Assembly (NCBI RefSeq): GCF_003334255.1
Contig: NZ_QOWU01000136.1
Direction: 5' to 3' (one strand)
Length of the DNA: 2,318 nucleotides
Origin: Escherichia coli
Lineage (GTDB): Bacteria > Pseudomonadota > Gammaproteobacteria > Enterobacterales > Enterobacteriaceae
Below are positions 1 through 2,318 of the stretch, piece by piece. Below the pieces are notes generated by a model, which was not told the DNA's origin, ran no database searches, and saw nothing but the letters and a program-made list of their open reading frames with translations. How positions within the stretch are numbered: position 1 is the first letter of the stretch; each line of letters begins with the position of its first letter. Both the position numbers and the translations under genes were made by a program.

Positions 1-2007
1 GGCGGTGGTCAGCAGGCGGCTGTTCTCACCGCTTCCACTGGTCAGGCGCAGACTGAAGCGCACGCCCTTCACCACCCTCGGCGTGTCCCATTTCGCCAGC
101 GCCAGATACTGGCTGTCAGCTGCGCTCACCTCCACCGTCAGGTGCTGCACTGCCGGTGGGATGACGCTGTTCAGGGAGCCTGACTGCGGCTCAAAGCGGG
201 CACCGTTATCCACGATGGCTTCTTTTTCCGGTACGTGCTGCACCGCCGTGATGGCAAAGGTGCCGTCCGTGTTTTCCCGGATGGCCACACAGCGGAACAG
301 GCGACGGCGCAGTGACGGCAGGGAGAGTCCCCACACCCCGTATGTCTCCACACCATCAGGCAGGGTACTGACCTGTATCCGGTCCGGCGCGGGGTGTGCG
401 GTGATGTCCACACTCACCGGCTTACCGCTGCCGTTAATCAGGTTCACCGTGGCGGCACCTGTCCCCGGAAGTGTCACTTCACGGTCCAGCGTCAGGGTGC
501 GGGTGGCAGCATCAATGGACAGGACACGTCCGCCGGTCAGGGTCCCGGCATAGTCATTATCACAGATTTCAATAATGTCACCGGGTGTGTGCCGCAGCCC
601 CTGAGACCCGAGTGTGAAATCCACCGTCTGCGTTTCCAGCAGTTCGGTCTTTATCACCCACAGCCCGGCACGGTGGGCCTGACCGCGGCTGGTACAGCCG
701 AACGCGTCCATCTTCAGCAGGTTGCGTCCGTAGCGCAGTATGGCTTCCGGGTCTTCCACCAGTTCCGTGGAGGTCTGCCAGCCGTTCTGCGGGTCGGTGT
801 AATTCACCTCCACCGCCGTGTGCCGGTCCTTCAGGGCACTGAAGCTGTAGCGGAACCCCACGCCGTTATCATCCACCACCACATCGCTGTTGGTGTACGG
901 CCACACCACATCCGACGGGCGGTCCTGAACGAACGTCAGCGTCTGGCCGTTCCATACCGGCATACAGCGCATCGCCGAGCAGAAATCACTGAGAACGTCC
1001 CACGCCTTACGCTGTTGTGCCAGGTACGCATTAAAGGTCATCCGCGGCTCTGTGCCCCCGAAACCATCCGGGACCGTCTGGTCGCAGTACTGCCCGATGG
1101 CATACAGCGCCCACTTGTCCACATCCGCCGCCCCCAGACGTTTTCCCATGCCGTAGCGCGGGTGAGTCAGCATGTCCCACAGGCACCAGGCCGGGTTGTT
1201 GCTGTATGCCGGTTTCAGACTGCCGTCCCAGATACCACTGTACGTGCGTTTTTCCGGGTCATAGTTTGACGGCACCTGGATGATGCGACCGCGGATATGG
1301 TAGTTCACCGTCATCTGCTGGCCGCCGAACTGCTCCGCATCCACCTGCAGCCCCACAATGGCCGTGTTCGGGTAGCACTGTTTCACATCGATGATTTCGG
1401 TGTATGACGACCAGAGCGTCTTATTCTGCAGCTGGTCCGTGGTGCTGTCCGCCGTCTCCCTGACCATCCGGATGTTAAAGGGGCGGGGAGGCAGATTATC
1501 CAGAATCACCGAGGCCAGGAACTGTGAGGTGGTCTTGCCGTTAATGGTGACATCCTTTTCTGTCACCCAGTTACCGTTACGCTGTAACTGAATCAGCAGA
1601 CGGACAGAGGACGGATTACGGTCACCCTTTGACGTGGTCTCCACCAGTGACTGCACCCCGAAGGTCACCCGCAGGCGGTCAATGTTCGCTGACGTAATGG
1701 TGCGTGTCACCGGTTTTGCCCTGGTCACTTCCACACCCAGTACAGTTTCAGAGCCGGAGGACTCAAAGCCTTCCGGTGGTGTCTGCTCCTGCTCCCCGGC
1801 GCGCCAGACCGCGGTCACACCGTGTATCACGGGATTACCGTCCGTGTCCGTCAGCGGGGTTTTGTTCACCAGAATACTCTGCAGGCCTTTCACCGGACCT
1901 TCAATGGGTCCCTCACCAATCGCATCAATCACGCTCATCATCTGCGTGGATTTGAGATTATCCTTCGCCTCACGAGGTGTGTGTGCCTTACCGCCACCTT
2001 TACCCAC
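1..2007 (-). CDS. J: Host specificity / tail tip protein J homolog (lambda gpJ-like), N-terminal 669 codons; partial, 3' end lies beyond position 1
   Basis: Reverse-complement translation from GTG (2007..2005) is open for all 669 codons to the window edge (2007 is divisible by 3). The product begins MGKGGGKAHTPREAKDNLKSTQMMSVIDAIGEGPIEGPVKGLQS..., which closely matches the lambda J N-terminus as I recall it (MGKGSSKGHTPREAKDNLKSTQLLSVIDAISEGPIEGP...). Further lambda-J-like blocks follow, e.g. WSSYTEIIDVKQCYPNTA, PAYSNNPAWCLWDMLTHPRYGMGKRLGAADVDKWALY, LFRCVAIRENTDGTFAITAVQHVPEKEAIVDNG. An alternative in-frame GTG start at 2022..2020 would add 5 codons. Confidence 0.92.
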   Translation of the reverse strand, partial: MGKGGGKAHTPREAKDNLKSTQMMSVIDAIGEGPIEGPVKGLQSILVNKTPLTDTDGNPVIHGVTAVWRAGEQEQTPPEGFESSGSETVLGVEVTRAKPVTRTITSANIDRLRVTFGVQSLVETTSKGDRNPSSVRLLIQLQRNGNWVTEKDVTINGKTTSQFLASVILDNLPPRPFNIRMVRETADSTTDQLQNKTLWSSYTEIIDVKQCYPNTAIVGLQVDAEQFGGQQMTVNYHIRGRIIQVPSNYDPEKRTYSGIWDGSLKPAYSNNPAWCLWDMLTHPRYGMGKRLGAADVDKWALYAIGQYCDQTVPDGFGGTEPRMTFNAYLAQQRKAWDVLSDFCSAMRCMPVWNGQTLTFVQDRPSDVVWPYTNSDVVVDDNGVGFRYSFSALKDRHTAVEVNYTDPQNGWQTSTELVEDPEAILRYGRNLLKMDAFGCTSRGQAHRAGLWVIKTELLETQTVDFTLGSQGLRHTPGDIIEICDNDYAGTLTGGRVLSIDAATRTLTLDREVTLPGTGAATVNLINGSGKPVSVDITAHPAPDRIQVSTLPDGVETYGVWGLSLPSLRRRLFRCVAIRENTDGTFAITAVQHVPEKEAIVDNGARFEPQSGSLNSVIPPAVQHLTVEVSAADSQYLALAKWDTPRVVKGVRFSLRLTSGSGENSRLLTTA

Positions 2008-2019: not shown

Positions 2020-2049
2020 CACCGTCCGCTGCCGGACACTGTTGATGTA

Positions 2050-2080
2050 TAAAAACAACAGGCACCCCGGAGGGTGCCTG
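2050..2080 (-). terminator. Rho-independent terminator, minus-strand orientation, in the I-J intergenic region
   Basis: Minus-strand RNA reads CAGGCACCC-UCCG-GGGUGCCUG followed by UUGUUUUUAUAC: a perfect 9-bp GC-rich stem (2059..2067 with 2072..2080), a 4-nt loop, then a U-rich tract (2050..2058). On the plus strand the hairpin is not followed by a T-tract, so it is orientation-specific. Confidence 0.7.
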
Positions 2081-2118
2081 CATCATGACGGAATAAAAAT
2101 TCTGAATATCTTCACATT

Positions 2119-2146
2119 TTCACAAACTGACTGTGGCGCGTATAAT
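2119..2146 (+). promoter_or_regulatory. Sigma70-type promoter, plus strand: -35 TTCACA (2119..2124), 16-bp spacer, -10 TATAAT (2141..2146)
   Basis: Perfect consensus -10 hexamer TATAAT and a 5/6 match to the -35 consensus TTGACA with 16-bp spacing. An AT-rich UP-element-like stretch lies upstream (gaataaaaattctgaatatc, 2091..2110). Predicted transcription start is near 2153. Confidence 0.55.
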
Positions 2147-2152
2147 TTCGCT

Positions 2153-2248
2153 GCGTTAGTGTTTTTTCTGCCCGAGTAACAAAAACAACTCCTTAACTCT
2201 AATCTTTGTCTGTCCCCGCAGCTCCGCGATCACTGCGGGATTTTTTTT
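2153..2248 (+). ncRNA. Candidate small non-coding RNA (about 95 nt), antisense to the tail operon, in the I-J intergenic insert
   Basis: Bounded by the plus-strand promoter (2119..2146) and the plus-strand intrinsic terminator (2215..2248). No ATG and no ORF longer than 6 codons between them. Contains a CA-rich stretch (UAACAAAAACAACUCC, about 2177..2192) and an AU-rich stretch before the terminator, as is typical of Hfq-associated sRNAs. Prediction from sequence only. Confidence 0.45.
2215..2248 (+). terminator. Rho-independent terminator, plus-strand orientation
   Basis: CCCGCAG (2215..2221) pairs with CUGCGGG (2233..2239) as a 7-bp GC-rich stem around an 11-nt loop, followed directly by 8 consecutive T (2241..2248) and further T-rich sequence. 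On the minus strand the hairpin is preceded by A-rich and followed by non-U-rich sequence, so it is plus-strand specific. It ends 8 bp before the convergent I stop codon. Confidence 0.7.
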
Positions 2249-2255
2249 ATTCTTT

Positions 2256-2318
2256 TTACCCCTGCCGCCCGATAACCACGACCTTTCCGCCCCCGCCTTC
2301 ATCACGGGTACTGATGTC
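2256..2318 (-). CDS. Tail assembly protein I homolog (lambda gpI-like), C-terminal 20 codons plus stop; partial, 5' end lies beyond position 2318
   Basis: Reverse-complement frame starting at 2318 reads DISTRDEGGGGKVVVIGRQG then TAA (2258..2256). This resembles the C-terminal end of lambda gpI as I recall it (...EISTADEGDGGQVVVIGR). GC-rich coding-like composition stops abruptly at this stop codon. Position directly upstream of J fits lambdoid gene order. Confidence 0.6.
   Translation of the reverse strand, partial: DISTRDEGGGGKVVVIGRQG

Follow-up and report, generated by a model that had tools for sequence, protein, structure and literature searches.

The closest described system is PasB, an Hfq-dependent sRNA of EPEC E2348/69 that was found by RIL-seq (Pearl Mizrahi et al. 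2021, PMC8550237). It is 83 nt long, is encoded at NC_011601 1466343-1466261 between E2348C_1436 and 1437, and has the Northern probe AATCCCGCAGTGATCGCGGAGCT (PMC8550237 table S6). Static overnight cultures in LB had more of it than exponential cultures in DMEM, and its Hfq-dependent accumulation has been reported for E2348/69 only (PMC8550237). PasB has also been treated by Zhu, Shabalina and Storz in a preprint (2026, doi 10.64898/2026.05.13.724894). The main text of PMC8550237 and that preprint are silent on the promoter, the start site and CRP, and we found nothing published on how pasB is transcribed. Rfam holds no family for the RNA. The anti-sRNAs AgvB and AsxR are comparable: they are short, bind Hfq, are encoded by lambdoid prophages and combine a conserved 3' part with a variable 5' part. 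They sit, however, at the moron site downstream of PR', outside the tail operon (Tree et al. 2014, PMC4104026). They have no sequence in common with the PasB locus, and neither of their Rfam families was found in our search. AgvB, which had been a first guess for the RNA described here, was thus ruled out.

The DNA analysed here, a stretch of 2,318 nt that we call the window, covers the I-J tail-gene gap of a lambdoid prophage, with both tail genes on the minus strand (Table 1). The product of J is the tail-tip or host-specificity protein; its translation begins VGKGGGKAHTPREAKDNLKSTQ... (also written VGKGGGKAHTPREAKDNL...), and in RefSeq its homologues carry the annotation 'phage attachment tail tip protein J'. 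The translation of gene I, ...DISTRDEGGGGKVVVIGRQG*, is identical to the annotated C-terminus in sequence L001, and closely related RefSeq loci name this gene 'tail assembly protein'. The gap between the two genes is about 248 bp long (2008-2255). It contains two copies of TTCACA, at 2111-2116 and 2119-2124, which the initial annotation had singled out as a possible binding site for a regulator.

Table 1. Features of the window, with positions counted from its first nucleotide.
Feature	Position	Strand	Basis or remark
Gene J, 5' part	1..2007	-	start GTG 2005-2007; leaves the window at its left end
Terminator-like hairpin with U-rich tail	2048..2081	-	arms 2059-2067 / 2072-2080; terminator scan and inverted-repeat search
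A-tract ATAAAAAT	2093..2100	+	about -60 to -53; possible distal UP subsite or flank of the dyad
Dyad TCTGA-N6-TCACA followed by TTT	2101..2119	.	invariant half-sites and variable spacer; candidate site for a dimeric regulator
-35 hexamer, the second TTCACA	2119..2124	+	promoter scan; 5/6 against TTGACA
-10 hexamer TATAAT	2141..2146	+	promoter scan
PasB, predicted primary transcript	2153..2248	+	alignment to E2348/69; start 2153 inferred from the -10
PasB intrinsic terminator	2215..2248	+	stem CCCGCAG / CTGCGGG (2223-2239), then T8
Gene I (tail assembly), 3' end	2256..2318	-	stop TAA 2256-2258; leaves the window at its right end

The plus-strand RNA downstream of the promoter is the PasB orthologue, and it lies antisense in the I-J gap. 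The reverse complement of the published Northern probe matches 2220-2242 of the window exactly, and pairwise alignment with E2348/69 gave about 90% identity over the whole gap, with the promoter region identical across 2101-2124. The two loci share the same gene, the same intrinsic terminator and the same antisense position between I and J; a 4-nt indel and a small number of substitutions separate the window RNA from PasB of E2348/69. On the window, the published 83-nt PasB spans about 2169-2248. In an alignment of 18 copies the arms of the terminator were invariant in all of them, and the U-tract that follows is a 3' end of the Hfq type.

Several further features of the RNA family were observed. 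The 5' half of the RNA (window 2163-2214) is highly variable and carries indels. Conserved across the family are the promoter block, GCGTTA (2153-2158), a short AATCTTC segment near 2201-2207 and the terminator. This pattern of a scaffold with a variable region recalls the AgvB and AsxR anti-sRNAs. A C/A-rich run, AACAAAAACAAC, lies in the 5' region at 2176-2187; runs of this type are targets of the GcvB R1 seed.

PasB-like loci were found in 1810 of 5426 complete E. coli genomes, about a third, with a median of two copies; the 4243 places detected in these genomes amount to up to nine per genome. They were also found in 150 phage records, mostly from Stx-converting phages. The Zhu, Shabalina and Storz 2026 preprint reported 1158 hits, fewer than were found here, probably because diverged EHEC and Stx-phage variants (about 78% identity) were not captured there. 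A scan for the PasB terminator with one genome per species returned mostly chance matches and one identical copy in E. albertii, and yielded no footprint at greater phylogenetic depth.

Upstream of PasB, the sequence TTCACA-16 bp-TATAAT (2119-2146) matches the sigma-70 consensus at 11 of 12 positions, which bears out the earlier view that the second TTCACA is a -35 element. A consensus scan found two sigma-70-like sites in the window compared with 0.7 expected in shuffled sequences; on the plus strand it found one strong promoter of this type. From the -10 element we infer a start at 2153. The published 5' end, which is based on RNA-seq coverage, corresponds to about 2169 and is thus 16 nt further downstream. 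The inverted repeat 2160-2166 / 2181-2187 and the predicted fold place a U-run in a 5' hairpin of PasB, and on these grounds processing of a 96-nt primary transcript to about 2169 is plausible. A second promoter is also possible, since TAnnnT at 2157-2162 does not vary among 36 distinct sequences. Neither the consensus scan nor inspection of variants revealed a convincing minus-strand promoter that would use the conserved block described below.

Both sequence features in the initial annotation were found again: two TTCACA copies lie 8 bp apart from start to start, with TT between them, and CTGA-N8-ACAT is present at 2102-2117 (the minus strand across the repeat region reads TGTGAAAATGTGAA). 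The repetition itself is at chance level. The window has seven exact direct repeats of 6-mers separated by 0-6 bp, compared with 4.6 +/- 2.6 in dinucleotide shuffles, and 22% of the shuffles reach seven (p = 0.22). When the 247-bp intergenic stretch was taken alone, 24% of shuffles had at least one such repeat. A much lower expectation, 0.01, is obtained for the pattern as it stands, but this pattern was drawn from the sequence itself and the figure is post hoc. A repeat search of the window found no direct-repeat family at the TTCACA copies.

To describe conservation, two sets of homologues were used. The first consisted of 18 copies with 75-98% identity, picked from BLAST matches to the entire gap and aligned blind to the motif. 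The second, drawn independently, was obtained by scanning viral contigs with the PasB terminator as the sole criterion; 36 distinct sequences of the 76-nt stretch 2087-2162 and 30 distinct promoter versions were recovered. In the first set, TCTGAA-NN-TCTTCACATTT (2101-2119) was invariant and 2120-2140 was not. In the second set, 8 of the 27 columns from 2093 to 2119 varied, compared with 24 of 27 in the immediate flanks (36 unique sequences; Fisher p = 1.7e-5). A-tract positions 2093 and 2095-2098 and the right arm TCACATTT were invariant in the 36 sequences, and the left arm was TCTGA in 35 of them and TATGA in one. The spacer between the arms took six forms (ATATCT, AACTCT, AATTCT, ATTTCT, GTTTAT and TTTTCT). 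Thus, what is conserved at the pasB promoter is an A-tract joined to an inverted repeat whose spacer is free to vary, and not the direct repeat. The copies are kin by descent and recombination; independent substitutions are therefore few, and a count of tests based on the 19 invariant bp is too high.

The two TTCACA copies fared differently in the same alignment. The first copy, which is the right arm of the dyad, never changed among the promoter versions. Every column from 2120 to 2124, in the second copy, varied, and 13 of the 30 versions lacked this copy and had TTCTGT, TTTGCA, TCCGGC, TCTGCA or other sequences instead. The -10 element was kept as nATAAT or TATCAT in 28 of the 30 and was always 24 bp from the right arm of the dyad, with no indels. 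Versions with a poor -35 that matches at 1-3 of 6 positions (for example TCCGGC, 1/6, and TTCTGT, 2/6) and with a 5/6 -10 still carried the conserved block. The repetition therefore looks like a coincidence in which the right arm of the dyad adjoins a consensus-like -35.

The dyad motif is essentially confined to PasB-type promoters. It occurred 138 times in 1.18 Mb of related phage DNA; 126 occurrences were upstream of a PasB-type terminator, 10 lay in PasB-type promoter modules whose downstream part was different, and 2 fell elsewhere. A phage-encoded regulon was also sought in this DNA, and the two occurrences outside PasB modules compare with 2.2 expected by chance. The dyad appears to be undescribed, PasB itself being known. 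As a cis element of a bacterial promoter, it belongs to a common class of features.

Tandem PasB arrays of two to four units are present in some lambdoid phage contigs (L026 7727-8429 on the plus strand; also L025, L029, L079 and L090). Each unit has its own A-tract and dyad block, -10 and terminator, but the RNA bodies differ, and one unit type has a degenerate -10 (GTGCAT). In the PasB-like units of L039, L043, L061, L062 and L104, the RNA body is kept from about window position 2152 onward. Upstream of it, these units have unrelated sequence that follows a terminator-like hairpin, with no dyad block and no TATAAT.

The minus-strand hairpin at the other side of the block lies about 40 nt upstream of the J start and outside the TTCACA repeat. 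It is kept in most copies, with changes in the loop or stem in E2348/69, and a different bidirectional hairpin takes its place in the L013-L016 group. An Rfam match to STnc100 at 2048-2081 was rejected as sub-threshold (24.3 bits against a gathering score of 47). More generally, the matches to STnc100 and Hrs1 were far under their gathering scores and were due for the most part to terminator hairpins of a generic kind. The I-J gap acts as a hot spot for the insertion of additional genes. In the EAEC 042 prophage (L138 6128-6604), the gap holds an ORF for a 112-aa hypothetical protein on the strand of I and J, and no PasB.

We consider it fairly probable that pasB is transcribed from a promoter with a separate conserved upstream element, that this element is bound by a dimeric host protein, and that the TTCACA repetition is coincidental. 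RNA polymerase with sigma-70 would use TTCACA/TATAAT, with initiation of pasB transcription near 2153. The element, which spans about -60 to -34 and comprises the A-tract and the imperfect inverted repeat TCTGA-N6-TCACA-TTT, would act as a cis element of this promoter; a dimeric DNA-binding protein of the host would bind the dyad, possibly together with the alpha subunit of RNA polymerase at the A-tract. In this way the element would determine or adjust the activity of the promoter, with the largest effect in members of the family with a poor -35. Fixed arms, a free spacer and a fixed distance to the -10 suggest a dimeric helix-turn-helix protein. That the block is kept beside poor -35 sequences is as expected if it compensates for a weak -35, and an activating role in which the block partly replaces the -35 may be envisaged on this basis. 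The window promoter is near consensus and may need little help, and a repressing role is also possible. Points against this account are the published 5' end near 2169, the invariant TAnnnT at 2157-2162 and the group of PasB-like units devoid of the block. The initial annotation had argued that expression of the RNA may be regulated rather than constitutive. This much of it is plausible, given that the PasB level differs by condition and that an invariant block lies upstream of the -35, but the binding unit that it proposed, the direct repeat, did not survive the comparison of homologues.

As to which protein might bind, we infer a host factor from the layout of the block, and no known regulator's matrix scored convincingly at the dyad. 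The matrix check suggested earlier gave 4.9 bits for CRP, and a consensus search for LexA gave matches at chance level. It is possible, though doubtful, that the A-tract and the TCTGA-N6-TCACATTT dyad form the operator of a host global regulator, either CRP, at a weak site in an unusual position, or a dimeric factor with no link to this motif so far.

CRP taken by itself, with cAMP-CRP binding the dyad and activating pasB when glucose is lacking, is an unlikely identity for the protein, and the evidence is divided. CRP-dependent promoters (consensus AAATGTGATCTAGATCACATTT) resemble this one in their 5-6-5 dyad, in which the TCACA-TTT arm is perfect, the flank is A/T and the spacer varies, and in the location of the dyad immediately upstream of and touching the -35. 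The sequence TCTGAATATCTTCACA agrees with TGTGA-N6-TCACA at 9 of 10 core positions and is the sole such site in the window, where 0.10 would be expected. Its flanks AAT and TTT resemble the AAA and TTT of the 22-bp consensus, and its half-sites are invariant around a free spacer, as for CRP. In addition, PasB is higher in overnight LB, and the CRP-repressed sRNA Spf shows the opposite behaviour in the same data (PMC8550237); overnight LB and exponential DMEM, however, differ also in growth phase and oxygen.

The matrix score speaks against CRP. We used a symmetrised matrix built from 107 ChIP-seq sites of ETEC H10407 (PMC4287617). The dyad scored 4.9 bits, whereas the median for bound sites is 13.0 and their 10th percentile 8.1; no more than 3% of them score this low. 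Such a score is expected once per ~650 random positions (1.5e-3 per position), and a position inside gene J scores higher. The low score is due to C at the second position of the left arm, where half-sites have G in 87% and C in 1% of cases. This position is never G in the PasB family (35 C and 1 A). The left arm TCTGA and a matrix score in the lowest 3% thus set the dyad apart from CRP-dependent promoters, and so does its location. Class II activation by CRP needs a site centred at about -41.5, and activating positions are -41.5, -61.5 and so on. Given the predicted start, the dyad centre (2108.5, 32.5 bp upstream of the -10) is at about -44.5, which is about 3 bp further upstream than class II. 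The modes in CRP ChIP-seq data are -40.5 and -92.5 (PMC4287617). The site is not listed in the published CRP ChIP tables of ETEC and EAEC, and the EAEC 042 prophage that was examined has no PasB; the lack of a peak in EAEC 042 says nothing, because the I-J gap of that prophage holds a different insert.

Other regulators were compared with the dyad by eye on the basis of their consensus sequences, and these comparisons are leads only. Cra, FNR, OmpR, ArgR, MetR, IHF and Lrp each failed on the central position, the spacing or the conservation. LuxR/SdiA-type boxes, P2 Ogr-type sites and alternative sigma factors failed on the same grounds.

It is rather unlikely, and somewhat more so than binding by CRP, that the block is only an UP element, which would raise promoter strength through the alpha subunit of RNA polymerase while pasB is expressed constitutively. 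UP elements are A/T-rich and tolerant of change, with the consensus NNAAAWWTWTTTTNNNAAANNN at -60 to -40. The invariant A-tract lies at about -60 to -53, where distal UP subsites are found, and the window promoter is near consensus and would need no activator. Compared by eye with NNAAAWWTWTTTTNNNAAANNN, the distal AAAAATT matches and is invariant, but the proximal part does not match. An UP element would also leave unexplained the strict invariance of the G/C-containing TCTGA and TCACATTT next to a free spacer. Moreover, PasB levels are condition-dependent, although this dependence is possibly post-transcriptional.

The block might also be conserved for reasons other than transcription of pasB, either as a signal on the minus strand in the late tail-gene mRNA or as a recombination joint. 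We regard this as improbable. The left boundary of the PasB module falls at the A-tract (2093-2100), where homology to the L013-L016 group and to the units of tandem arrays starts. The block sits at a mosaic boundary, exactly at the left edge of the module, with three or more unrelated sequences adjoining it, and it is transcribed within the I-J late mRNA; its location at such a boundary is one point counter to the proposed promoter element. Nevertheless, the block travels with each tandem PasB unit at a fixed distance to the -10. It also occurs independently of the minus-strand hairpin, which the L013-L016 group lacks, and no minus-strand promoter or structure is evident at the block.

A slightly poorer prospect still is the tandem operator of the initial annotation, in which the two TTCACA copies would be bound by a repressor or activator overlapping the -35. 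The repeat is exact and overlaps the -35, and 17 of the 30 promoter versions have both copies. OmpR- and PhoB-type operators likewise have two identical direct hexamers overlapping the -35. However, known tandem-repeat binders of the response-regulator class have a period of 10-11 bp, and the period here is 8 bp. The second copy varies at all five positions from 2120 to 2124 and is replaced in 13 of the 30 versions, while the first is invariant and has as its conserved partner the upstream TCTGA, in inverted orientation. The repeat is also at chance frequency (p = 0.22 in the window as a whole, 0.24 in the gap alone).

It is very improbable that the dyad region contains a box for LexA (SOS) or DnaA. 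LexA boxes keep CAG and have the full consensus TACTGT-N8-ACAGTA; the CTG-N10-CAT at 2102-2117 resembles CTG-N10-CAG but breaks the invariant CAG with CAT, and CTGT-N8-ACAG with up to two mismatches was matched 16 times in the window against 11.4 expected, in agreement with the earlier judgement that the likeness is unconvincing. The 9-mer ATTTTCACA (2116-2124) is one mismatch from the DnaA-box sequence TTWTNCACA, but it belongs to the non-conserved copy, and the conserved copy, ATCTTCACA, has two mismatches. DnaA-box-like 9-mers (TTWTNCACA with at most one mismatch) occur seven times in the window compared with 2.5 expected, and 3 of 200 shuffles reach seven; this excess, which is mostly inside gene J, is probably a composition effect.

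In practical terms, the TTCACA repeat is a -35 box beside an unrelated conserved half-site and is not to be treated as a tandem operator. A search for the regulator of pasB can be aimed precisely at the invariant dyad-symmetric block that precedes the -35, and the identity of this regulator would show whether the prophage sRNA PasB is wired into host nutrient or stress sensing. If the block were the operator of a global regulator, a whole family of prophage sRNA cassettes would be coupled to host physiology.
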